Positions 3,622 through 33,951 of a DNA stretch of 40,155 nt are shown one piece after another. Numbering within the stretch: the stretch's first letter is position 1; every line of letters starts with the position of its first letter. The notes beneath the pieces were generated by a model. It was not told the origin of the DNA and ran no database searches. It was given only the letters and a program-made list of their open reading frames with translations. The stretch lies in IMG/VR virus record IMGVR_UViG_2541047888_000009. The stretch is one strand, 5' to 3'. The stretch comes from a virus. Its lineage: Duplodnaviria; Heunggongvirae; Uroviricota; Caudoviricetes. Made by a program: the position numbers and the translations under genes.

Positions 3622-6396
3622 TTACACTCCTGATACTTCAATAGATAGTTGAATCTTATTTGGCATCTTGTTGCTTAAATATATGGTTGCAAAGTCAAAC
3701 GAAATATTTAAGTTATTTTCATCACCATCATTATCTGAAAGAACTCCGGTTTTCAATACAACATTTTGCTTATTAATTTCTTTTAAAGGAGAAAAATCAA
3801 TTGCCTCACCACGATGAATAAGAACACCAACTGCAATTACCCCATGAATATCAAGTATGTCGTGCATATCAAGGCGAACACATGGGACATATCCACCAAC
3901 AAGGATACTTGTAGATTTGTTGGCTTCAAGTGTTATTAGATATTTTCCGTCTGGTTGAACTATTGTTCCTGCTATTCCATCTGGCGTGTTGAACATACCG
4001 CAGTATCTGTATCCTGCTCCAACAGGAACAATTCTGTTACCGCCAAGATCATGGAAATTTCGAACAATTATTGCACCAGGAACTGATGAATAAACCATTA
4101 CTGCCTCTGTTTGCCCTGATACAGAGTCTGATGTTTCTGGGTTCGCCATGCATAAATTACCACCAAAATAAATATTTTGGATTAGAGGGGTGAGGCCATC
4201 ATTAACCTCAAAACGTAAAAAGCCCTTGAGAACAGTCCTTGCGGTATTATTCTTAATAACAACAGGAAGTTCTTTATAGTAAGAGTTTCTGTCTGTCTGT
4301 GCCAGAGTTGTTTCAATAAAAACAAAAGGTCTGTGATTACGTTGAGTTGCATTCACAGGTTTGTACCTCAAGTTGTATGGCAAAGACATCTCAGTAAAAC
4401 CATCAATATAATTACAGTTCTGAATCGTGAACCCACCACCACTATATCTTACAAAAAAAGGAGCCGGGCCGCTAAATCCCCTGGCGTTCATTCCATCATA
4501 CACTTCATTTAATCCGCGTATTACACCAGCATAATACAAATTGACTGAATTGCCGCCTGTAAAAGTTGTTTCGTATGATGGGCCGTGTCCACCGCAACAT
4601 GAATTTCTTGTATCGCCATCAGGGAAAAATTTAACTCCATCATATGCAGTTCCACCACCCATCATCGTTGGATTTATAATGTTATTATACAGTGATACCA
4701 TTTGAGTCCCGCTTACATCAAGCCCCCTCCTGCAAGCAAATGCTATCATATCCACGACTGTGCAATAGCTGCTATTGTATATTTCAACACCATAACCAGT
4801 GCCGTTTGTTAAATCATATGCACGGTTTGAGTATTCAATATATGGCTCTATTATTTTCGTTCTGTAGCATGACTCAAGAAAAATTCCAGTTTCTGAAAAG
4901 CCGATTAGTTTTATTCCTTCTATATGCATATCAACAGCGCCATCTATCACAAGACCACGGAACCCCAAATCACCAGGAGATGCGTTCTGCGTGACAGGTC
5001 TTTCAAAATTGAAATCACCGACAATTCTGCCGTAGCATGGTTTTCTTTTATATATATTTGCCTTTCTTGTGATTTTAAACACGTCTCCAACAGATGGTTT
5101 AAACGGGAATGGTCCCTGAGCATATTCAAATTTTGCTGTTTTAGTGTCGTAATCCCAATGAGTTATGTATCTTGATATTCCGGCGTTAGCTCCGGTGACA
5201 CCTGTTACTTTTACCTGATTGTATTGTTTTGTTAATGTTGCATCATTACCAAATGAGAATTCACCTCCGGATACAGATGCTGTTACGGTCGTTGAGTAAT
5301 CATTGCTCGCAGAGTAGAAAAAATAAAATGCACCTGATATCTCCGCTTTTTTTGTTGCATTATCAAAAGCAGTAACAACATGCATTTCACCTTCACAAGC
5401 CTGTCCTCTATTATCTGTCTGAATTAAGCGATTACCATGAATCATAATTATATCGCCTGCATCAAAAGAATATGCTGAGTTAATTGATATTGATGTGTCA
5501 CCAGGATTTATTGTTGAATTATAGTCAATTGGCGTGGCATCTCCACCTTCGAGTCTTATGAAATAATCATCAATCCAGTTTGGACCAAGAGGCTCTTTTG
5601 CGGTTGACTTTAAGACAACCTTGCCATCAGCTACCCAGTCATAGTTATAATTATCCCCGCCGCATTTTATGCGGCTAATCAAATACACACCAGAATCCCA
5701 CTTCAGGCGTTTTCCGTTAGATGCGCAGTAAATGATGGCATTTGTTATTGCGTCTGTATCGTCAGTAATGCCATCCCCTTTTGCACCAAAATCGCGAACA
5801 TTGACGATATCCCGCATCTTATCCTGGAACGTTCGATATACTGCCCCAAAACCATACTGAATAAACCAACCAAAACCACCAACAACCCCGGCGATTGCAG
5901 CATCGACATAATTACGCATTGAGCGATTATTTACAGCATCCTGCTCAAGTGATGGATCTGCAAGGTTAGAAATTCTGTTTTGCTTTGCATCGTAATATTT
6001 TGCAAGCAAAGATGGTTTCATCAATGCACGTCTGAACCACCCAAAACATCGCTGGATCAGCATCGTCAGGTAGTCAAATGCATCCTCATGAACTTCGGGG
6101 AAAAATTTTCCCTGATTGCGAAGATCAGTCTCCTGCACCACATCAAGCACACGCTCTATCGTGATTTTCCAGCCAGCAGCAAGCGGCGACGGAAGAACAA
6201 CAGAACCGCCACTATAAGTGCCCGCCCCAGTTACCGTATAACCGGTATCCAGAACCAATTCTGTTACGTTACCGTTCAGGTCAGACACCTGAACAACCAG
6301 GTCTGTTTTTTTGAAAATGCGGAAGGTATACGGAAATGATGTCGTAACGCCGTTACCTGTGTATTCGTTGTGGTCAACTTCGGTTGAGACCGTCAT
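3622..6396 (-). CDS. Tailspike protein: T7 gp17-like N-terminal adaptor domain fused to a pectate-lyase-like beta-helix (polysaccharide depolymerase type)
   Basis: N-terminus EYTGNGVTTSFPYTFRIFKKTDLVV resembles the T7 tail-fibre N-terminal domain; internal motif NVRDFGAKGDGITDDTDAITNAI is typical of pectate-lyase superfamily beta-helix tailspikes; GGAG RBS. Confidence 0.8.
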   Translation of the reverse strand: MTVSTEVDHNEYTGNGVTTSFPYTFRIFKKTDLVVQVSDLNGNVTELVLDTGYTVTGAGTYSGGSVVLPSPLAAGWKITIERVLDVVQETDLRNQGKFFPEVHEDAFDYLTMLIQRCFGWFRRALMKPSLLAKYYDAKQNRISNLADPSLEQDAVNNRSMRNYVDAAIAGVVGGFGWFIQYGFGAVYRTFQDKMRDIVNVRDFGAKGDGITDDTDAITNAIIYCASNGKRLKWDSGVYLISRIKCGGDNYNYDWVADGKVVLKSTAKEPLGPNWIDDYFIRLEGGDATPIDYNSTINPGDTSISINSAYSFDAGDIIMIHGNRLIQTDNRGQACEGEMHVVTAFDNATKKAEISGAFYFFYSASNDYSTTVTASVSGGEFSFGNDATLTKQYNQVKVTGVTGANAGISRYITHWDYDTKTAKFEYAQGPFPFKPSVGDVFKITRKANIYKRKPCYGRIVGDFNFERPVTQNASPGDLGFRGLVIDGAVDMHIEGIKLIGFSETGIFLESCYRTKIIEPYIEYSNRAYDLTNGTGYGVEIYNSSYCTVVDMIAFACRRGLDVSGTQMVSLYNNIINPTMMGGGTAYDGVKFFPDGDTRNSCCGGHGPSYETTFTGGNSVNLYYAGVIRGLNEVYDGMNARGFSGPAPFFVRYSGGGFTIQNCNYIDGFTEMSLPYNLRYKPVNATQRNHRPFVFIETTLAQTDRNSYYKELPVVIKNNTARTVLKGFLRFEVNDGLTPLIQNIYFGGNLCMANPETSDSVSGQTEAVMVYSSVPGAIIVRNFHDLGGNRIVPVGAGYRYCGMFNTPDGIAGTIVQPDGKYLITLEANKSTSILVGGYVPCVRLDMHDILDIHGVIAVGVLIHRGEAIDFSPLKEINKQNVVLKTGVLSDNDGDENNLNISFDFATIYLSNKMPNKIQLSIEVSGV

Positions 6397-21162: not shown

Positions 21163-21455
21163 TCCTGTTCACTGGCCTCTTTGGCCATCTTCAAATACTG
21201 TTCAGGGCAATGCGCCATAACGCGCTGAAACAGTTCCAGCGCCAGATTGCGTTGCCCCTCATTAAATGCCATTGCCATAGCGTCCATCGGTGAGATAGCG
21301 GAAAACACACGGCCTTTCTCCAGCACCGACCAGACAACGCGACGCCCCTGTTCACTGCTCATGACAAAGCGAATGTCATCAATTTCACGCTGTGCCATGT
21401 CACGTTGCTTACGGGCGTTTTCTTCTTTCAGTTGATCATCTTCGTAATCTGTCAT
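21159..21455 (-). CDS. Small head-module protein (98 aa), unknown function
   Basis: Sits between portal and scaffold genes with overlapping stop/start. Confidence 0.5.
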   Translation of the reverse strand: MTDYEDDQLKEENARKQRDMAQREIDDIRFVMSSEQGRRVVWSVLEKGRVFSAISPMDAMAMAFNEGQRNLALELFQRVMAHCPEQYLKMAKEASEQE

Positions 21456-23131
21456 TGTGATTGCCCACCCTGACCACTAACTGCATTCGCCATAGCTGAC
21501 AAAACACTCGGATCCGAAGTTTTAGCTTCGCTTAGCGTCTTGGCGCCCTGTGCCGCCGCCATTCCCATCGCCATCATTTGTTGCTGCTGTTGCTGCTGTG
21601 CCCGTTGCTGGCGAGCCTGCTCAACCTGTTCCTGCGGAACAATGACGGTTGGAGACACTCCGGACATATCAGCGAATGCATCGATCGCCTGATCAACATT
21701 GAGTTTGTCGAGAGCTTCTGGTTTCGCTTGCGCAAGTTGACCAATGAAGTTGACCGTAGACGCCAGACTGGACAGGCCGATAGACTTCTGCGCCTGAGCC
21801 ATGACGGAAATGTATTCGACCTTCAGGGGCATACCTTCCATCGCGTCAGGCGGTGGCGGCAGCATGTTTTTACGCACCATCATCGAGAAAGCGCGGTCAA
21901 TGAGAGGATTAAGACATTCGTCGTTCAGACGCTCCAGAACCGGCCCCAACATCAGAAGTTTTTCTTCTTTCATTTCGATCACCGCTTCAACAGGCATCGA
22001 GCGGGTATTGATGTTCTGCAACATCATGAACAGATCGACAAAGTAGGCGCTGTTAATGATTTGACGAGTGTCCTGAATGTCTGCCACCAAATCTGCTGTA
22101 CTGGGGTTAACCAGATAAGCAGGCCTGAAGCCATCCTGACCAGTAATCTGATCGATATACGTGATGTCGCCAGGAAGAAGGGAGGCGCGCTGATTCTTGA
22201 GGGAAGTCGGAGCAACCATCGGCGGATTGGTGGCTTTATCAATCAACTGCGACTTGCGCTTCTGGAGAAGCTGCAATGCCTTAACAGGTCCAAGCGCCAG
22301 CATACCCGGGCATGATGATCCATAAACATCTTCGCCGTTAACTTCCCAGCGCGGAGCCATAATTGGAAACTCATCGAATCCGGACTCACGCAACAACTTG
22401 TCGTTATCTCCACCAACCTCGTAATAAACCGATTTGAATGGCTTGTTCTTGCTATCCAGCTTCGATGTATCGCGGTCAATGTTCGGGTAAACCGAATGCA
22501 TCACTTCGATCCACTTCTCGTAGGTGCCGCTTTCCCACATGCTTTTTACGGATTCGCTGACGTTATTTAGCCCGAACTCCTGAACAAGCTGACGAACAGT
22601 CATAGAGAACTTGCGAAAACAGGTGTCAACACTGCCACGAGGTGAGTTAGCCAGGTAGTAACTGCCTATCGGGAATGGCATTGTGCGAATGATGTCCTCG
22701 TCATCCTCCAGCACTGCCATTGCACCAGTGCTGTATGTGCCGAGGCTTCCGTATAACTGCGGAAGAGACTGGTAGAGATTCGACTTATTGAACATATCGT
22801 TCATGCGGTTCTGAACTGCCTCAAGCCACAACTTAACAGGGCCATAATCCATCATTTCAGGATCTGGCGTAGCCAGGCGAAACCACGGACGCGCAGGGCT
22901 TGTGATGCCTGACATCATGCCGCTGGCGAGAGTGCGCGCCGCCATAGTCCCGGTCGAATCAATAATGCGTGTATTGCGTCGATCGTTACGGTTGACCTCA
23001 GAAGTCAGAAAGCGGGAACCACGCGGGTTGATGTAATCACTCAACTCGCGCCAGTGCGGCTCGAACGACTGACGCTCGCTTTCAAGTTGTGCGAACTGTT
23101 TGTTCAATCGCTCTTTAGTTGTTTCCGCCAT
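21452..23131 (-). CDS. Portal protein
   Basis: 559 aa, first gene of the head module; poly-Gln C-terminal tail (QQRAQQQQQQQ). Confidence 0.8.
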   Translation of the reverse strand: MAETTKERLNKQFAQLESERQSFEPHWRELSDYINPRGSRFLTSEVNRNDRRNTRIIDSTGTMAARTLASGMMSGITSPARPWFRLATPDPEMMDYGPVKLWLEAVQNRMNDMFNKSNLYQSLPQLYGSLGTYSTGAMAVLEDDEDIIRTMPFPIGSYYLANSPRGSVDTCFRKFSMTVRQLVQEFGLNNVSESVKSMWESGTYEKWIEVMHSVYPNIDRDTSKLDSKNKPFKSVYYEVGGDNDKLLRESGFDEFPIMAPRWEVNGEDVYGSSCPGMLALGPVKALQLLQKRKSQLIDKATNPPMVAPTSLKNQRASLLPGDITYIDQITGQDGFRPAYLVNPSTADLVADIQDTRQIINSAYFVDLFMMLQNINTRSMPVEAVIEMKEEKLLMLGPVLERLNDECLNPLIDRAFSMMVRKNMLPPPPDAMEGMPLKVEYISVMAQAQKSIGLSSLASTVNFIGQLAQAKPEALDKLNVDQAIDAFADMSGVSPTVIVPQEQVEQARQQRAQQQQQQQMMAMGMAAAQGAKTLSEAKTSDPSVLSAMANAVSGQGGQSQ

Positions 23132-23145
23132 TTCAATGACTCCGG

Positions 23146-23352
23146 TTACTGACCAAGCAGCGTTTTACCGCTGGTATTAGCGGTTGATGTGTCGCCCTGA
23201 GAACCGGTAAGCAGCGTAGAACTACGACCAGCAGCAGCGCGACGGCGACGTGTTTCTTCGTCGCGGGCATCAACAACGGCGGCATCCTGCTCCTGTGGTG
23301 CTGCCTGAACTTCTGGTGTTGCAGGCACTGATGGTGAGCTACCCATGCACAT
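23146..23352 (-). CDS. Small Ser/Thr/Arg-rich protein upstream of portal
   Basis: ATG with GGAG RBS 8 nt upstream; 68 aa; low complexity. Confidence 0.4.
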   Translation of the reverse strand: MCMGSSPSVPATPEVQAAPQEQDAAVVDARDEETRRRRAAAGRSSTLLTGSQGDTSTANTSGKTLLGQ

Positions 23353-23420: not shown

Positions 23421-23457
23421 TTGACATTTAACGCGTGAATTATTACCTTTCAGGTAA
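23421..23457 (+). promoter_or_regulatory. Candidate moron promoter: -35 TTGACA (23421..23426), 17-bp spacer, -10-like TACCTT inside an operator palindrome (23443..23457, TTACCTTTCAGGTAA)
   Basis: Consensus -35 hexamer; the -10 candidate coincides with the left half-site of the repressor operator motif. Confidence 0.4.
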
Positions 23458-23779
23458 CTAAAGAGCTCATTCTGGTTACTAACCTGACTGGCTTGTCGTT
23501 AAATTAAACAGGTGGAGTGAGCTTTTATTTTGAGCAGTACGGCGTATGGCACATGCGCCGATAGCGGTCTGGATACGTTTAAGGGGCACCCTCCCTTGCT
23601 CGGGCAAACGAACCAGGTAGCCGGAATGTGCAAGTCGAGCGGTTTTATTCCGCGCACGGGGATTCACCATCCCGGCGATTCGGTGTGACGCCTCGGAAGA
23701 GACGAGGGTACAACGATGAGAGCATTTATGGAGCCGCGACAAAGTGTGGCGCCTTAACAGGCTAAGTGCTCTCAGCGTT

Positions 23780-23856
23780 GTGGCATTAGCTCAGTCGGAC
23801 AGAGCAACCGCCTTCTAAGCGGTTGGTCGCAGGTTCGAATCCTGCATGCCACGCCA
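23780..23856 (+). tRNA. tRNA-Arg (anticodon UCU, reads AGA)
   Basis: Full cloverleaf folded by hand: acceptor GTGGCAT/ATGCCAC, D-arm GCTC-AGTCGGACA-GAGC, anticodon arm ACCGC-CTTCTAA-GCGGT, T-arm GCAGG-TTCGAAT-CCTGC, discriminator G, encoded CCA. Confidence 0.85.
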
Positions 23857-23899
23857 GAATCACGCCTAAGGACCGTGATGCCAGAAGTTCCAGGGGCTT

Positions 23900-23942
23900 G
23901 GCGGTGATGGTTTCCCTTGAAGGACTATCACCGCCCTTTTTA
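23900..23942 (+). terminator. Hairpin plus T-run downstream of the tRNA
   Basis: GGCGGTGAT ... ATCACCGCC (9-bp stem, long loop) followed by CTTTTTA. Confidence 0.45.
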
Positions 23943-24019
23943 CAGCAGGACGCCATTGCGATGACTTCATGCTGTAAACCCGTACAGCCACGGAAGGCAT
24001 AACTCATTGCTTCCAGTTC

Positions 24020-24043
24020 GCCCGGTTCGCCGGGCATTTTTTT
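24020..24043 (+). terminator. Strong intrinsic-terminator-like hairpin immediately upstream of the gp49-like gene RBS
   Basis: GCCCGG-TTCG-CCGGGC followed by ATTTTTTT; the AAGGTGA RBS and the ATG at 24055 follow directly. Confidence 0.5.
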
Positions 24044-24054
24044 AAGGTGAGATT

Positions 24055-24426
24055 ATGAACGACAAGCAAATCGAAAAAGAAATCGTTGAGAAAGGCAAAA
24101 CGGCACCGCGCGTTACGCCAGACCATATCGAAGGCATTATTGCTCAGGAGGCATATTTCACAGCAGAAGATGGTGCCTTTGGCAAAGCCATAAAAGCGAA
24201 ACATACTGGCGGAGAGGTAAACTACCAGCCGCACGAATCACTTTCTCTGCTGACGTTCTGCGTCCTGGTGCTGCGCAACGGCTTCACCGTCACCGGAGAG
24301 AGCGCCTGTGCAAGCCCGGAAAACTTTGATGCAGAAATTGGTCGGAAGATTGCCCGGCAGAATGCTGTAAACAAAATCTGGATGCTCGAAGGTTACTTGC
24401 TGAAGCAGAAGCTAAGCGAGCAATAA
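24055..24426 (+). CDS. Moron protein, probably of the phage gp49-like family (N4 Gp49 / Sf6 gene 66)
   Basis: 123 aa, opposite strand to the flanking terminase and portal genes; AAGGTGA RBS; segment TAEDGAFGKAIKAKHTGGEVNYQPHESLSLLTFCVLVLRNGFTVTGESACASPENFDAEIGRKIARQNA resembles that family. Family from memory. Confidence 0.6.
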   Translation: MNDKQIEKEIVEKGKTAPRVTPDHIEGIIAQEAYFTAEDGAFGKAIKAKHTGGEVNYQPHESLSLLTFCVLVLRNGFTVTGESACASPENFDAEIGRKIARQNAVNKIWMLEGYLLKQKLSEQ

Positions 24427-24430
24427 CACC

Positions 24431-24442
24431 GTGACATGTCAC
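24431..24442. repeat. 12-bp perfect palindrome GTGACATGTCAC, copy 2 of 3
   Basis: Exact repeat, 5 bp after the stop of the gp49-like gene and just before its terminator hairpin. Confidence 0.8.
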
Positions 24443-24446
24443 AAAC

Positions 24447-24474
24447 AGCCAGCCTATGAGCTGGCTTTGTTTTA
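24447..24474 (+). terminator. Rho-independent terminator of the tRNA/gp49-like moron
   Basis: AGCCAGC-CTATGA-GCTGGCT followed by TTGTTTT. Confidence 0.65.
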
Positions 24475-24516
24475 TCCTCATCAGAGGATATCAACGACAT
24501 TATCCCCACCAGCGGA

Positions 24517-25992
24517 TTAAGCATAGGGATCGTAATCTGTGATGGCCTTGCCTTGCTGGTTCTGCTGCCCGGGAATTCGCAGACGCTTCGACACAGGGAA
24601 CGCAAACGTCAGCAGTAGCGCATCGCCTTTACCAGGCGAACGCCCAAGCCGCTCCTTGATATCTTCCTTCGGTTCGATAACGATTTTACCGTCCACTCGA
24701 ACTTTGTACTCTGCCGCCGACAGATCGTCCGCTGTTTCCTGGTCATCCAGCATCCCTCCCAGCCTCAGCCATGTCTTGCATGAGTTGAACATCTCCCCAC
24801 GCTTGTTGAGCATCTGCTGGTCAGTAGACGCGCCACCGAACGGAACAAGTTGCCATGTACGACCCCAGCCGTCACCGATTGACTTCAAACCGGTTCCGTA
24901 ACCGAAGTCGATGAACACCGCGTCAGCCTGATACTGGTCTTCAAAGTCAGCGATACGCTTCGCCATAATCAGATCGTCGGTAGTCTTGTTGCCAGTCCAC
25001 AGCACCTTACTGTGTAGCCCCTGCCGCAGGTATATCACAGCGTCATCAACGCCGGAGTATGCCGGGTCAACGCCGATTATCACCGGAGCATGTGCAACCT
25101 GCGCAGCGGTGACCACCCGTTTCATTGCCTCGTCAGTAAGTCCGGTAGGGATAAACTGCAATTCAGATGCATCCGGGAATATGCCGCGCACACGGATTTT
25201 AACGAAGTCGCTGTCTTCCCCGTAGTCATCAACCCATTTCTGCAACTGCTGTTTGTTAGTGCCTTCCACCGTCCGGCTGTCAATCTGCGCAGTTTTCCAG
25301 CGGTGTTTATATTTGCGGAAACATTCGCGGAAACGCCCGGTGTTACGTGTAGGGTTTCCGAACGCCACCCAGATAATCTCAGTGTCTTCGTCCGTAAGCG
25401 CACCCTCAGCAACTTCCCACACCAGATCCGCAATGTTCGACGCTTCATCGAATACCACGATGATGCGTTTGCGCTCGTTGTGTAGTCCGGCGAATGCCTC
25501 AGTGTTGTGCTCAGACCAGGGGATTGCGTCAGCTCGCCACCGCTTGTCGTGCCCAGGATCATTGCTGTACATCGCGGTAGCGGTACAGGTAAACCAGTCT
25601 TTCGTGATAGCAAGGTTCGACCACTTGATAATTTCCGGCCAGGTCTTCGTTCGTAGCTGGTTGTCGGTGTTGGCGGTCACCACGACCTTACAATCCTCGC
25701 AAGTGGACATGCCCCAGTTGATCAGCATTGAGATGAATGCGGATTTACCAATACCGTGACCAGAAGCGCGTGCCAGCATAAGCGGCTGATAGCGCGTCGC
25801 TGGATTCTGCAGGTGATCACGTATCTCTCGGAACGCATCAGCCTGCCACTGACGTGGGCCGGTAGCATGTGCCAGTTCAGTCCCTTCTTCCCCCCACGGG
25901 AACGCATAGAGGGCATAGCCAAGCGGATCGTGAGTGAACCCTGCAATATCCTCGATCAACTGCTCTTCAGGAGATAACGCTGTATCTGTCAC
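24517..25992 (-). CDS. Terminase large subunit
   Basis: 491 aa; Walker A-like ARASGHGIGKS; acidic nuclease-type C-terminal half; start overlaps the small-subunit stop. Confidence 0.85.
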   Translation of the reverse strand: MTDTALSPEEQLIEDIAGFTHDPLGYALYAFPWGEEGTELAHATGPRQWQADAFREIRDHLQNPATRYQPLMLARASGHGIGKSAFISMLINWGMSTCEDCKVVVTANTDNQLRTKTWPEIIKWSNLAITKDWFTCTATAMYSNDPGHDKRWRADAIPWSEHNTEAFAGLHNERKRIIVVFDEASNIADLVWEVAEGALTDEDTEIIWVAFGNPTRNTGRFRECFRKYKHRWKTAQIDSRTVEGTNKQQLQKWVDDYGEDSDFVKIRVRGIFPDASELQFIPTGLTDEAMKRVVTAAQVAHAPVIIGVDPAYSGVDDAVIYLRQGLHSKVLWTGNKTTDDLIMAKRIADFEDQYQADAVFIDFGYGTGLKSIGDGWGRTWQLVPFGGASTDQQMLNKRGEMFNSCKTWLRLGGMLDDQETADDLSAAEYKVRVDGKIVIEPKEDIKERLGRSPGKGDALLLTFAFPVSKRLRIPGQQNQQGKAITDYDPYA

Positions 25993-26588
25993 TGATTGCC
26001 ATCCTGACGTTCTTTCAGTCTCTTCCTGGCTGCCGCTATGCGATCAGCAATTGTCACATTCACATTAACATCCAGGCGTTCTTTGAACGCGTTGACATCA
26101 ACATGCTTACCAATCAGCTCAAGGTTCTTCACCTTGTCAGGCCATTTAATTTTTTTGAGGATTGTCTCTATCGAATCCTCGTTCATGTTCATGATGGTCG
26201 ATGACAGATCAAAGCCGCTAAGCGTAGTGCGCCAGATTTTCGGCCACTCACGGATTGGTTTAAGGCTCCCATCGTCGTTGAGGATGTCGATCACGTCCAT
26301 CTGGTCGATCTCCACCAGGCGCATGAGAACGTAATCAGCACTGACGCGCATTCGTTTGTTGCGCTCCTCCATCAACTCGGCAATCCGTTTTTGAATGCGT
26401 TCATCGCGCATCATGACACTGGCTTTAACTGCCGCTGTATTTGGGGAGAATCCTGCGTTAATCGCTGCCTGAGTCTGGTTTTCAGGCGTTTTGATGTATG
26501 ACTGGCAATAAGCCTCCTGCATTGCTGTTAGTGGCTTAAATTGCGTTGATTTGCGTTTATAGGTTTTAGGTTCAGCAGGCATCATAAC
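25989..26588 (-). CDS. Terminase small subunit
   Basis: Immediately upstream of and overlapping the large subunit; segment LTAMQEAYCQSYIKTPENQTQAAINAGFSPNTAAVKASVMM matches the small-terminase pattern. Start at internal Met assumed. Confidence 0.7.
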   Translation of the reverse strand, partial: VMMPAEPKTYKRKSTQFKPLTAMQEAYCQSYIKTPENQTQAAINAGFSPNTAAVKASVMMRDERIQKRIAELMEERNKRMRVSADYVLMRLVEIDQMDVIDILNDDGSLKPIREWPKIWRTTLSGFDLSSTIMNMNEDSIETILKKIKWPDKVKNLELIGKHVDVNAFKERLDVNVNVTIADRIAAARKRLKERQDGNQ

Positions 26589-26659
26589 CACCGTGGTAAT
26601 AGTTACCGTTGTGGTAATAGTACCATGCAAAATAAAGCCGCCATAGTTGGCGGCAGTAT

Positions 26660-26872
26660 TCAAAGTCCATCAAATTCATCGTAAAAACTCTCGTCAAGAT
26701 ACCCTTCCCATTTACCGCGAATGAAAATTACATCCTCGCCGCAAGGGTGCTGACTGTCGATAACTATATCCCTCCTGGCGCAACCATACTTATGCATGAG
26801 AAATTTAACCTCTTTCGGAAAATTTGCTGAGTTATCTCTCATATCTTCAAGGTCGTAGCGTATTTTTGGCAT
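26660..26872 (-). CDS. Small hypothetical protein upstream of the terminase genes
   Basis: ATG at 26872 (MPKIRYDLEDM...); the listed ORF extends to a GTG inside the 12-bp palindrome, which is unlikely to be the true start. Confidence 0.45.
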   Translation of the reverse strand: MPKIRYDLEDMRDNSANFPKEVKFLMHKYGCARRDIVIDSQHPCGEDVIFIRGKWEGYLDESFYDEFDGL

Positions 26873-33366: not shown

Positions 33367-33951
33367 ATGAAAAGTATCCAGGACGTCCGCAGGCAAAATC
33401 TCAACGACTTGATCGACCGTGAATTCAATGGTGTTCAGACGCGGATGGCCGAAAAACTTGGAACTCAGGCAAATCTGGTAAACCGCTGGGCTCTTGGTAA
33501 GAAGGTTATCGGCGATCAGGTTGCGCGAAAAATTGAAGCTGCCGCCAATAAACCCCGTAACTGGCTTGATATCGATCGCTCGCTTTCTCAGGAAGGTTTT
33601 CAGCCTGTCGGCCCAAGCGACATTGGCCAGCTGGCGGCTCACAACCTGGAACGCTGGATGAGCGAAAGCCGCGACCTTTCAACACAGGGAAAACTTCACC
33701 GCGCATCCGGCGTAGCCCAGGTGACAATCAGCCGCCTGTTAAACAATGAGGTCAGCGTTTCCATTTCCACCCTGGAGAATGTTGCATCTGCATTCGGGCG
33801 TCACGGATATGAACTACTGATTCACCCGCACGACCCTGCAACTATCAACTATGACCGCTCGCGCTACGCATTGTTACCTGAAACAGAGAAAGCAAAGATC
33901 GAAAGTTACATTGAATTTGTCATCAACCAGAACGAAAAAAGCAAACAATAA
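33367..33951 (+). CDS. Prophage repressor (CI-like), tandem XRE-type HTH domains, no recognisable S24 peptidase domain
   Basis: Two HTH-like segments (QTRMAEKLGTQANLVNRWALGKK and ASGVAQVTISRLLNNEVSVSISTLENVASAFG); sits between operator clusters, divergent from the Cro-like gene; terminator follows; no SD before the ATG. Confidence 0.65.
   Translation: MKSIQDVRRQNLNDLIDREFNGVQTRMAEKLGTQANLVNRWALGKKVIGDQVARKIEAAANKPRNWLDIDRSLSQEGFQPVGPSDIGQLAAHNLERWMSESRDLSTQGKLHRASGVAQVTISRLLNNEVSVSISTLENVASAFGRHGYELLIHPHDPATINYDRSRYALLPETEKAKIESYIEFVINQNEKSKQ

Follow-up and report, generated by a model that had tools for sequence, protein, structure and literature searches.

We analysed the island at positions 23,421 to 24,474 of the virus record IMGVR_UViG_2541047888_000009, whose full 40,155 nucleotides (nt) we call the window, and found between its promoter and its tRNA gene a conserved, pseudoknotted RNA of about 175 nt, named here the core, which is an undescribed and very widespread structured RNA family. 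By type, the window is a phiV10/epsilon15-like prophage (genus Uetakevirus). The original prediction, made from the letters of this stretch, had placed a self-contained plus-strand moron between terminase and portal, within the minus-strand packaging/head operon, and the flanking genes, for portal, TerL, TerS and an open reading frame (ORF) of 68 amino acids (aa), are indeed all on the minus strand. The parts it listed, namely a complete tRNA-Arg(UCU), a gp49-like protein, a promoter and three hairpin terminators, were all recovered. The stretch 23457-23779, which it treated as empty, has to be read differently, since it holds a conserved covarying RNA family and the tRNA stands within the modular architecture of that RNA. 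Taken together, we propose that the island may be an early counter-defence transcription unit of a phiV10-like prophage in which the core RNA would be a cis-acting antiterminator, a reading that as a whole we put slightly below an even chance.

A covarying RNA between promoter and tRNA gene

Alignment A1 of the core holds 54 sequences, each less than 97% identical, and resolves five helices (P1 to P5), an invariant junction and a pseudoknot that joins the loop of P4 to a downstream GGUG (Table 1). In this alignment 95.1% of the cells form standard pairs and 13 of the 30 pairs carry changes on both sides. Double changes occupy 128 cells against 36 in shuffles, with none of 500 shuffles reaching 128, and when the partners were slid by 1-3 columns as a control, 25-47% of the cells were paired. 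At the pseudoknot, C-G is exchanged for A-U in six sequences with zero breaks, and P5 combines a covarying stem with a conserved loop. The folded strand is the plus strand, because its near-invariant G-U pairs would turn into A-C in the complement. Covariance model R1 scored 141.5 bits at 23538-23711, its sole copy in the window, and the whole leader folds far better than shuffled sequence (z -4.84). The helix of the next module, D2, covaries as well: among 33 distinct arm pairs 92.8% of the cells are paired, both sides changed in 6 of 16 pairs, and 33 double-change cells stand against 13 in shuffles (a count reached by 0 of 500). The core and D2 are real covarying RNA structures of the plus strand.

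A search of 23457-23779 against Rfam 15, which includes GOLLD, ROOL, EAR, C4 and riboswitches, returned nothing over the gathering threshold, and only the neighbouring tRNA passes. With E values of up to 10, the window gave chance-level matches only outside the tRNA, and ten related loci gave no Rfam match at the core element. We also found no paper containing the strings of the invariant motifs of the core.

A protein-coding reading of 23457-23779, which would rely on ORFs of 52 aa (plus strand) and 87 aa (minus strand) and on a short peptide beginning ATG-AGA-GCA, was rejected: neither the ORFs nor the peptide are conserved, BUCT554 lacks an ATG at that place, phages differ in their stops, and the compensatory changes and G-U pairs fit RNA. 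The conservation of G-U pairs, like the disappearance of the short ORFs, also argues against a DNA-level or coding constraint as the cause of the core alignments. In several other records, 'hypothetical proteins' have been annotated where the core RNA lies.

These results bear directly on the simplest explanation of the island, an ordinary self-contained moron in which the tRNA and gp49 are the sole functional parts and the stretch from promoter to tRNA is meaningless spacer. Promoter, tRNA, gene and terminators are all present, as this explanation would have it. Sequence identity of the island is 95% with phiV10 and 99.9% with part of an E. coli chromosome, and the finding of the tRNA and of Gp49 is ordinary in itself because both are already annotated in phiV10-like phages, the matching chromosome record included. 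However, the supposed spacer is a covarying RNA that unrelated phages have in common and that is more widespread than the tRNA or the gene, and a putative phage operator lies on the promoter (see below). Covariation and distribution contradict the explanation, which is very improbable.

Occurrence of the core outside the window

Judged from its matches, the core is a mobile module common to Uetakeviruses, P1-like phage-plasmids and lambdoid prophages. Positions 23539-23786 share ~83% identity with unannotated DNA in hundreds of E. coli genomes, lambdoid phages, P1 and P1-like plasmids. Of 5,426 complete E. coli genomes, 1,839 (34%) contain the core. Its places in them number 2,470, with 554 on plasmids, and among the matches listed no annotated feature lies under it. 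About 550 P1-like plasmids in PLSDB carry it, too. The invariant 19-mer GGTAGCCGGAATGTGCAAG occurs in at least 120 IMG/VR contigs, the count being higher than that figure, and in 24 species-representative genomes; 23 of these 24 are full-length covariance-model matches, and the remaining one, in a metagenome-assembled genome of the Oscillospiraceae (L140), was set aside as a chance hit.

In phage P1 (L003, NC_005856 71023-71191) the core is unannotated, has P5 only of the modules and lies between trnI and ban in the C1-controlled ban operon. In contig L071 a Shine-Dalgarno sequence and an ATG come straight after P5. Among lambdoids, the loci examined have a cI-type repressor gene ~70-400 nt before the core and in the same orientation, with HTH and Peptidase_S24 domains in five of the six tested. 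The order in 2H10 and in a Shiga toxin (Stx) 2c phage is cI, terminator, near-consensus promoter, core, D2, D3, T1 and early-left genes. The 2H10 promoter before the core is the only sigma70-like one in 2H10 3850-5000, and its operator-like palindromes resemble those between cI and cro (OR). The position of the core in lambdoids is that of lambda nutL and HK022 putL. No N-like ORF follows it in 2H10, L156 and four other loci, where we saw no N-like features and no Pfam match in the first ORFs. Two further observations concern other RNAs of these phages: by Rfam models, 2H10 has a C4 antisense RNA and isrK in its rightward operon (L002, 1775-1963, minus strand), and Tyrion has an int-alpA RNA behind its cargo gene (L009, 2598-2662).

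The nutL-like position raises an alternative in which the leader is a nut-like site, with the P5 hairpin and the boxA-like UGCUCUC recruiting a phage N-like protein together with NusA, NusB, NusE and NusG. The boxB loop of lambda nutL is GAAGA, which the P5 loop GAAGAGA resembles, and P5 combines this conserved loop with a covarying stem; the leader of one Stenotrophomonas phage repeatedly shows hairpins with GGAAAGA/GGAAGA loops. Further likenesses to the boxB-boxA-boxC leaders of lambda nut and rrn are the leader position itself, behind PL in lambdoids, the order of a GAAGA-containing loop hairpin before UGCUCUY and a GU-rich GUUGUGG, and, in rrn operons, the long helices that enclose structured RNAs (compare the RNase III stems). 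A canonical rrn boxA, with at most one mismatch to GCTCTTTAACAA, stands directly after the core, with a hairpin preceding it, in 3 of 145 unique loci (background 2 per 1.14 Mb), perfect or near-perfect in these three relatives. We dismissed boxA as a general feature of the core, as it is confined to 3 of the 145 loci and the boxA-like motif of the window lies inside the D2 helix. Where a nut-type boxA would read CGCUCUUA or UGCUCUUUAACAA, the window has UGCUCUC, which is the 3' strand of the covarying D2 helix and is double-stranded in the folded RNA because it is part of that helix. Moreover, no N-like ORF follows the element in the loci examined, the unit of the window encodes an Acb4-like protein only, there is no obvious antiterminator protein common to Uetakeviruses, P1 and lambdoids, and the large, conserved and pseudoknotted core, which has no counterpart in nut or rrn leaders, is left unexplained. 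We therefore regard a nut-like site as improbable.

The tRNA is one module of the leader

Comparison across loci shows a leader built of modules, among which the tRNA is exchangeable and fills a position we call the D3 slot. ARAGORN called a single tRNA in the window, a tRNA-Arg with anticodon tct at position 35, and the Rfam tRNA model RF00005 scored 73.3 bits on 23780-23856 (gathering score 29; model positions 1-71). The anticodon loop of 7 nt reads CUUCUAA and the acceptor end GCCA is encoded. The tRNA is bona fide, and neither ARAGORN nor Rfam makes it a pseudogene. The ORFs of the prophage use AGA 6.5 and AGG 4.6 times per 1000 codons. E. coli averages are about 2 and about 1 per 1000 codons, and AGA/AGG use in the phage genes is about three times higher. 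A tailspike-like ORF of 924 aa with a pectate-lyase-like repeat (3622-6396, minus strand) holds 16 AGA and 5 AGG codons and makes the largest demand on the phage tRNA in the window. A supply of AGA/AGG decoding by the phage tRNA-Arg(UCU) is plausible on these codon counts.

Over 65 nt the tRNA is 92% identical to a tRNA-Arg of the Synechococcus cyanophage S-RIM2, and it is 84-88% identical to tRNA-Arg genes of many unrelated phages, argO of Stx phages included; the phage-type tRNA-Arg(UCU) sequence seems to circulate widely. In phiV10 (DQ126339), the coding sequence PhiV10p04 (4434-4685, minus strand) covers the tRNA gene and its trailing hairpins in antisense and is probably spurious. Like the phage tRNA genes argN and argO of Stx phages, those of P1 and the T4/T5 clusters, the tRNA of the window reads a rare codon, and the same tRNA is annotated in phiV10-like phages. 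Unlike them, it stands inside a conserved structured leader, and a non-tRNA but tRNA-shaped RNA replaces it in sister phages.

This replacement was seen in Tyrion, BUCT554, 2H10, several metagenomic relatives and lambdoids, where the D3 slot holds a non-tRNA RNA of ~85-170 nt closed by GUUGUGGUG/CACCACAAC, in general form GUUGUGGU(G)/(C)ACCACAAC. Most of the Uetakevirus-type copies read continue with CCA or CCC and have small conserved hairpins (GAAUGCGCAGGCUGAUGCGC, and GCCGGAGAUCAGCGCCGGC or a variant) beside both strands of the closing helix, a tRNA-like layout. These RNAs gave no Rfam match and no ARAGORN call. On the 5' side, G1 of the tRNA takes part in the last D2 pair, and the D2 insert varies between 28 and 94 nt across relatives. 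Some D2 inserts (L005, SPN1S, 1680-1775; L006, 1700-1765; L105) contain T-arm-like pieces, GGTTCGAATCC and GGTTCGATTCC, and may be decayed or unconventional tRNA-like elements. On the 3' side, the hairpin at 23859-23879 follows the D3 slot in the Uetakevirus-type loci read that keep the slot, whether it holds a tRNA or not; epsilon15, in which the slot is deleted, is the exception.

Before the core lies the long hairpin M0, whose counterpart in epsilon15 is a stretch annotated as an RNase III site. M0-like modules of the form AAAGCGCAC...GUGCGCUUUCAGGUGUG occur in other Uetakeviruses and, after the core, in the record of the Stenotrophomonas phage BUCT708. In this record (L008, 1380-1900) extra hairpins with GGAAAGA/GGAAGA loops stand before and after the core, and since the M0-type module comes after the core and not before it, the arrangement looks permuted. 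The host assignment of BUCT708 may deserve a check because all other hosts are Enterobacterales.

Predicted terminators between the core and the gene

A terminator scan gave four sites over both strands against 1.7 expected, among them the three hairpin terminators of the original prediction (23900-23945, 24020-24045 and 24447-24476), one of which lies directly before the ribosome-binding site. These three, T1 to T3, have the pattern of a GC-rich hairpin with a U-tract and are predicted terminators. T1 has homologues in 95 of 154 loci, in 38 variants of the form GGCGGU..loop with YCCUU..ACCGCC-CUUUUUACA; its inner stem differs among the variants yet stays complementary (by eye, uncounted), and the loop motif YCCUU is common to the P2 loop. 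The T-run of T2 abuts the Shine-Dalgarno sequence AAGGTGAG / AAGGUGAG (24044-24051), with the ATG at 24055, and this junction is conserved although the gene downstream varies. T3 may work in both directions, and phiV10 annotates a rho-independent terminator at the homologous place. In epsilon15 a single deletion has removed the core together with D2, the tRNA and, of T1, the 5' arm, and has left T2 and an Acb4-like gene in place. At the deletion (L004, 2540-2600) the TTCCCTTGATGCT loop of P2 is fused to this motif of the T1 loop, as in recombination between similar loops.

A promoter scan between T1/T2 and the gene found no sigma70-like promoter, and a TTTACA-N17-TGACTT seen by eye between T1 and the gene was dismissed as too weak. 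The original prediction had offered two options for the hairpin before the ribosome-binding site, separate expression of tRNA and protein or regulated read-through; read-through is reasonable.

A structured RNA before a terminator also invites comparison with a riboswitch-like attenuator, in which sensing of a ligand or factor by the core would set read-through at T1/T2 and the sponge encoded downstream would be made when needed. The complex pseudoknotted structure, the invariant junctions, the terminator-like hairpin after the core and cargo genes from families that bind immune nucleotides are in line with this idea. But 200-300 nt of variable RNA, a whole tRNA included, lie between the core and T1, which is unlike an aptamer with its expression platform; the same core precedes unrelated genes (P1 ban, lambdoid early-left genes), and it matches no known riboswitch class. 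An attenuator thus appears quite improbable, more so than a nut-like site.

The downstream gene and its slot

The gene after T2 encodes a protein of 123 aa that matches Pfam PF13876 (Phage_gp49_66, N4 Gp49 / Sf6 gene 66) over profile positions 1-82 of 82, with an E value of 8.9e-35 and 119.5 bits (cut-off 27), in agreement with the gp49-like assignment it had been given. A sequence search of the PDB with this protein returned one relevant match, Acb4 of the Bacillus phage SPO1 (entry 9e4w), and a profile of 29 homologues reached the same entry with an E value of 6e-6. Acb4 is a member of PF13876, of which 1,331 members were taken as Acb4 homologues, tetrameric sponges of cyclic-nucleotide immune signals (bioRxiv 10.1101/2024.12.30.630793). 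We predicted the structure of the 123-aa protein using AlphaFold2 (AF2). From the single sequence the model was unusable (predicted local distance difference test, pLDDT, 39), and the model was taken from the run on an alignment of homologues (pLDDT 81.8), with strands at 29-36, 67-73 and 78-83 and a helix at 93-122. The predicted fold has the Acb4 pattern of three antiparallel strands, N-terminal helices and a long C-terminal helix, and in a Foldseek search against the PDB the top 13 matches are all chains of 9e4w, with probability 1.00 and template modelling (TM) scores of 0.57-0.68.

According to profile and model, the protein has the Acb4 domain and fold, and it is a probable cyclic-oligonucleotide sponge against the cyclic-oligonucleotide-based antiphage signalling system (CBASS). 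It resembles SPO1 Acb4 in being small and phage-borne, in its PF13876 domain and predicted fold, and in the company of Tad2-like sponges in the same slot of relatives; it differs in its longer N-terminal region and is only 22-24% identical to the solved protein. PADLOC gave no match for the two small proteins.

Across 41 Uetakevirus-type loci with the same leader and a convergent TerL, the gene at the conserved T2-Shine-Dalgarno-ATG junction varies. It is Acb4-like in 12 variants and Tad2-like in six (PF11195, E 4e-26), the latter being the Thoeris anti-defence sponge family; further cargo includes an HNH endonuclease and several families without annotation. As judged by the gene families found there, the slot behind the leader is an anti-defence hotspot in Uetakeviruses, because Tad2-like and other genes replace the Acb4-like gene in it. 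Fusions of Acb4 and Tad2 have been reported (bioRxiv 10.1101/2025.07.12.664507), which the shared slot echoes. Within such an anti-defence cassette, the tRNA may be a backup against tRNA-cleaving defences. Two Uetakevirus relatives, the IMG/VR contigs L069 and L105, keep the whole RNA unit and have no protein cargo: in L069 the ORF after T2 has only 8 codons, and in L105 the end of TerL comes directly after T2, behind a leader with two D2/D3 sets.

Promoter and putative operator

The island has its own sigma70-type promoter, as had been predicted. The -35 hexamer and the adjoining palindrome are kept in the related Uetakevirus loci read (epsilon15, SPN1S, BUCT554, BUCT711 and Tyrion). A consensus promoter scan did not have this promoter among its calls because the -10 hexamer is weak. 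Allowing for at most one mismatch, we counted 13 copies of the palindrome TTACC-N5-GGTAA in the window, where 0.47 would be expected, and none of 100 shuffles had that number. Pairs of it flank the gene of an HTH_3 protein (194 aa, 33367-33951), a repressor candidate; another pair lies just upstream of the likely true TerS start, and several other copies overlap promoter-like sequences. The set resembles the dispersed operators of the P1 type. In the GenBank record of epsilon15 the site homologous to 23443-23457 is labelled a repressor site, and a paper on the Uetakevirus ZX5 contains no operator data.

The palindrome at 23443-23457 is probably an operator of the prophage repressor. Because it covers the -10/+1 region of the promoter, the island is probably repressed in lysogens and thus an early-lytic unit rather than a lysogen-expressed moron; early lytic timing fits a counter-defence role. 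Of the moron described originally, the self-contained make-up with its own promoter and the terminator T3 stands, and expression in the lysogen is what the 13 operator-like sites argue against.

Table 1 Features of the island, its flanks and related loci. Positions are those of the window unless a locus is named.
Feature	Position	Strand	Basis or remark
sigma70-type promoter: -35 TTGACA 23421-23426, spacer 17 nt, weak -10 TACCTT 23444-23449	23421..23449	+	read from sequence
Putative palindromic operator TTACCTTTCAGGTAA, overlapping -10/+1	23443..23457	.	presumed prophage-repressor site
M0, long hairpin with arms AAAGAGCUCA ... UGAGCUUUU	23460..23526	+	sequence; minimum-free-energy fold pairs both arms
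Core, structured RNA, ~175 nt, pseudoknotted	23538..23711	+	covariation, covariance model R1
Core P1, 9-bp hairpin	23540-23560	+	alignment A1
Core P2, long hairpin with conserved CCUU loop motif	23564-23621	+	alignment A1
Core invariant junction GGUAGCCGGAAUGUGCAAG	23617-23635	+	alignment A1
Core P3, variable hairpin	23639-23653	+	alignment A1
Core P4, loop CACC pairs with downstream GGUG	23659-23673	+	alignment A1
Core pseudoknot	23665-23668 with 23682-23685	+	alignment A1
Core P5, hairpin with loop GAAGAGA	23691-23707	+	alignment A1
D2, 16-bp helix CAACGAUGAGAGCAUU / AGUGCUCUCAGCGUUG, variable insert (35 nt here)	23711..23780	+	covariation
tRNA-Arg(UCU), CCA encoded, in exchangeable D3 slot	23780..23856	+	ARAGORN, Rfam
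Conserved hairpin AUCACG-CCUAAGGAC-CGUGAU	23859..23879	+	loci comparison
T1, 14-bp terminator-like hairpin GGCGGUGAUGG...CUAUCACCGCC then CUUUUUAC	23900..23945	+	terminator scan
T2, GC hairpin GCCCGGUUCGCCGGGC then AUUUUUUU	24020..24045	+	terminator scan
Acb4-family (PF13876, 'Gp49') protein, 123 aa, predicted cyclic-oligonucleotide sponge	24055..24426	+	Pfam, profile search, AF2/Foldseek
T3, terminator-like hairpin AGCCAGCC...GGCUGGCU then UUGUUUUAU, at convergent junction with TerL	24447..24476	+	terminator scan
Portal	21452-23131	-	flank of island
68-aa ORF	23146-23352	-	flank of island
TerL	24517-25992	-	flank of island, convergent with island
TerS	25989-26663	-	flank of island
TTACC-N5-GGTAA copies	2942, 6269, 6501, 23443, 26585, 26603, 30904, 30966, 32912, 33249, 33297, 34009, 34071	.	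motif count in window
Non-tRNA D3 RNA	L009 (Tyrion) ~1670-1810; L006 (BUCT554) ~1780-1920; L002 (2H10) 4234-4345; also L069, L105, L136		loci read

A possible cis-acting antiterminator or trans-acting RNA

The mechanism that we favour would start at the operator-covered sigma70 promoter and run through a structured untranslated leader of ~600 nt, made of M0, core, D2, the tRNA in the D3 slot, the hairpin after it, T1 and T2, to the gene of the Acb4-family sponge and the terminator T3. The unit would be silent in the lysogen and fire on infection or induction. RNase P and double-strand-specific processing would free the tRNA, which would supplement AGA/AGG decoding, and the sponge would sequester CBASS signals. 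The core RNA would act in cis on the transcribing RNA polymerase, in a put-like or nut-like manner and with host factors only, and the polymerase would thereby pass T1/T2, as well as Rho on the long untranslated leader, and reach the promoterless genes. We hold the cis-antitermination step itself tentatively, as somewhat less than an even bet, and consider the remaining steps to be at least quite likely.

A role in cis is favoured because the core always follows an early promoter, because conserved terminators and promoterless genes lie after it, because the core-only copies (P1 ban, L071) are plain mRNA leaders, because it co-occurs with boxA in the three loci named above, and because it holds the nutL/putL position in lambdoid prophages with no N-like gene there. 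The conserved terminator-like hairpin between the core and the first gene supports it as well. A close precedent is found in the polymerase-utilisation RNAs putL and putR of HK022, which are folded, cis-encoded just after the early promoter PL and need host RNA polymerase only (PMC9378689). Like the put RNAs of HK022 and HK639, the core is folded, lies just after PL in lambdoids showing no N-like gene there and is followed by terminators. Unlike them, with their ~70 nt and two stem-loops, it has ~175 nt, five helices and a pseudoknot, occurs once per phage and was not seen in the PR operon, and is present in podoviruses and P1 as well. Membership in the put family was rejected, since the core has no BLAST similarity to the HK022 immunity region and the covariance model has no match in HK022 or HK639; the RNA annotated as putL-like in HK639 is unrelated to the core.

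Several observations weigh against antitermination in cis and the unit built around it. The core is twice the size of the HK022 and HK639 put RNAs and similar to them neither in sequence nor by model. The lambdoid loci examined have one core each and none on the PR side; the covariance model found no second core there or elsewhere in the window, apart from the lambdoid contig L028 with two tandem cores ~800 nt apart (3996-4154 and 4803-4959, minus strand). Terminators are enriched downstream of the core to a modest degree, with 1.32 per 1.2 kb against 0.76 upstream and 0.93 antisense. The core is not indispensable for the Acb4-like gene, because epsilon15 keeps the gene without it, and L069 and L105 in turn have the RNA unit without protein cargo. 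T1 is conserved as a member of the family. On the side of the promoter, the -10 hexamer is weak, and the operator was assigned from over-representation and from the annotation of another record. Finally, all steps of the mechanism were inferred from sequence.

RNA-only units and the conservation of T1 fit an RNA product ending at T1, and they lead to the strongest alternative, in which core and modules form a trans-acting stable noncoding RNA. This RNA would serve host takeover or anti-defence by binding to a protein or RNA conserved in the host. It would be released by RNase P and double-strand-specific cleavage, the tRNA or tRNA-like RNAs of the D3 slot would be co-products or decoys, and the Acb4 gene would be expressed solely by leaky read-through. 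Besides L069 and L105 and the 95 of 154 loci in which T1, with its conserved base and loop motif, is part of the unit, this alternative can point to the 19 invariant junction nucleotides, which suggest a conserved binding partner, to processing signals that flank the unit (the tRNA 5' end abutting D2, the 16-bp helices and the epsilon15 RNase III site at M0), to the location in an anti-defence hotspot and to epsilon15, with its Acb4-like gene and no core. There is an analogy to GOLLD and ROOL, which are reportedly phage-borne structured noncoding RNAs that adjoin, and sometimes enclose, tRNA genes in prophages. The core is likewise phage-borne, highly structured and beside a tRNA gene; it differs from both in having no Rfam match to either, in its smaller size, in being found in Enterobacterales phages only, in its fixed place behind early promoters and in its modular, exchangeable inserts. 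Against a trans-acting product, the core in P1 and L071 has no terminator and is simply an mRNA 5' leader, in lambdoids it lies between the sole early-left promoter and the early-left genes, a canonical boxA comes right after it in three lineages, and there is no candidate partner for it. We consider a trans-acting product a possibility to be taken seriously, nearly as likely as the cis antiterminator.

A more far-reaching version would make the leader a polycistronic anti-defence or host-takeover RNA operon and a new class of phage counter-defence RNA. The core would then bind a conserved host machine, be it RNA polymerase or an immune or decay factor that targets RNA, and neutralise or re-programme it; the D2/D3 modules, tRNA-Arg here and tRNA-shaped RNAs with CCA ends elsewhere, would be spares or decoys against tRNA-cleaving defences; and the sponges Acb4 and Tad2 would be co-delivered from one early promoter. 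We regard this version as unlikely, though it is more credible than a nut-like site.

Implications for temperate phages of Enterobacterales

Among the conserved noncoding elements of E. coli prophages, the core is one of the commonest, and three unrelated phage types share it, P1 included; it forms the leader of the cassette in the window and likewise those of P1 ban and of the early-left operons in lambdoids. Should it be an antiterminator, early operons would have a third independent way to achieve read-through, beside lambda N/nut and HK022 put, and the core would explain early-left expression in lambdoid prophages without an N-like gene behind PL, some of which carry Shiga toxin genes. If it is a trans-acting RNA, it would represent a new phage-host interaction. 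In Uetakeviruses the locus is a marker for an anti-defence hotspot, and the unannotated cargo families that stand beside Acb4-like and Tad2-like genes are good candidates for new inhibitors.

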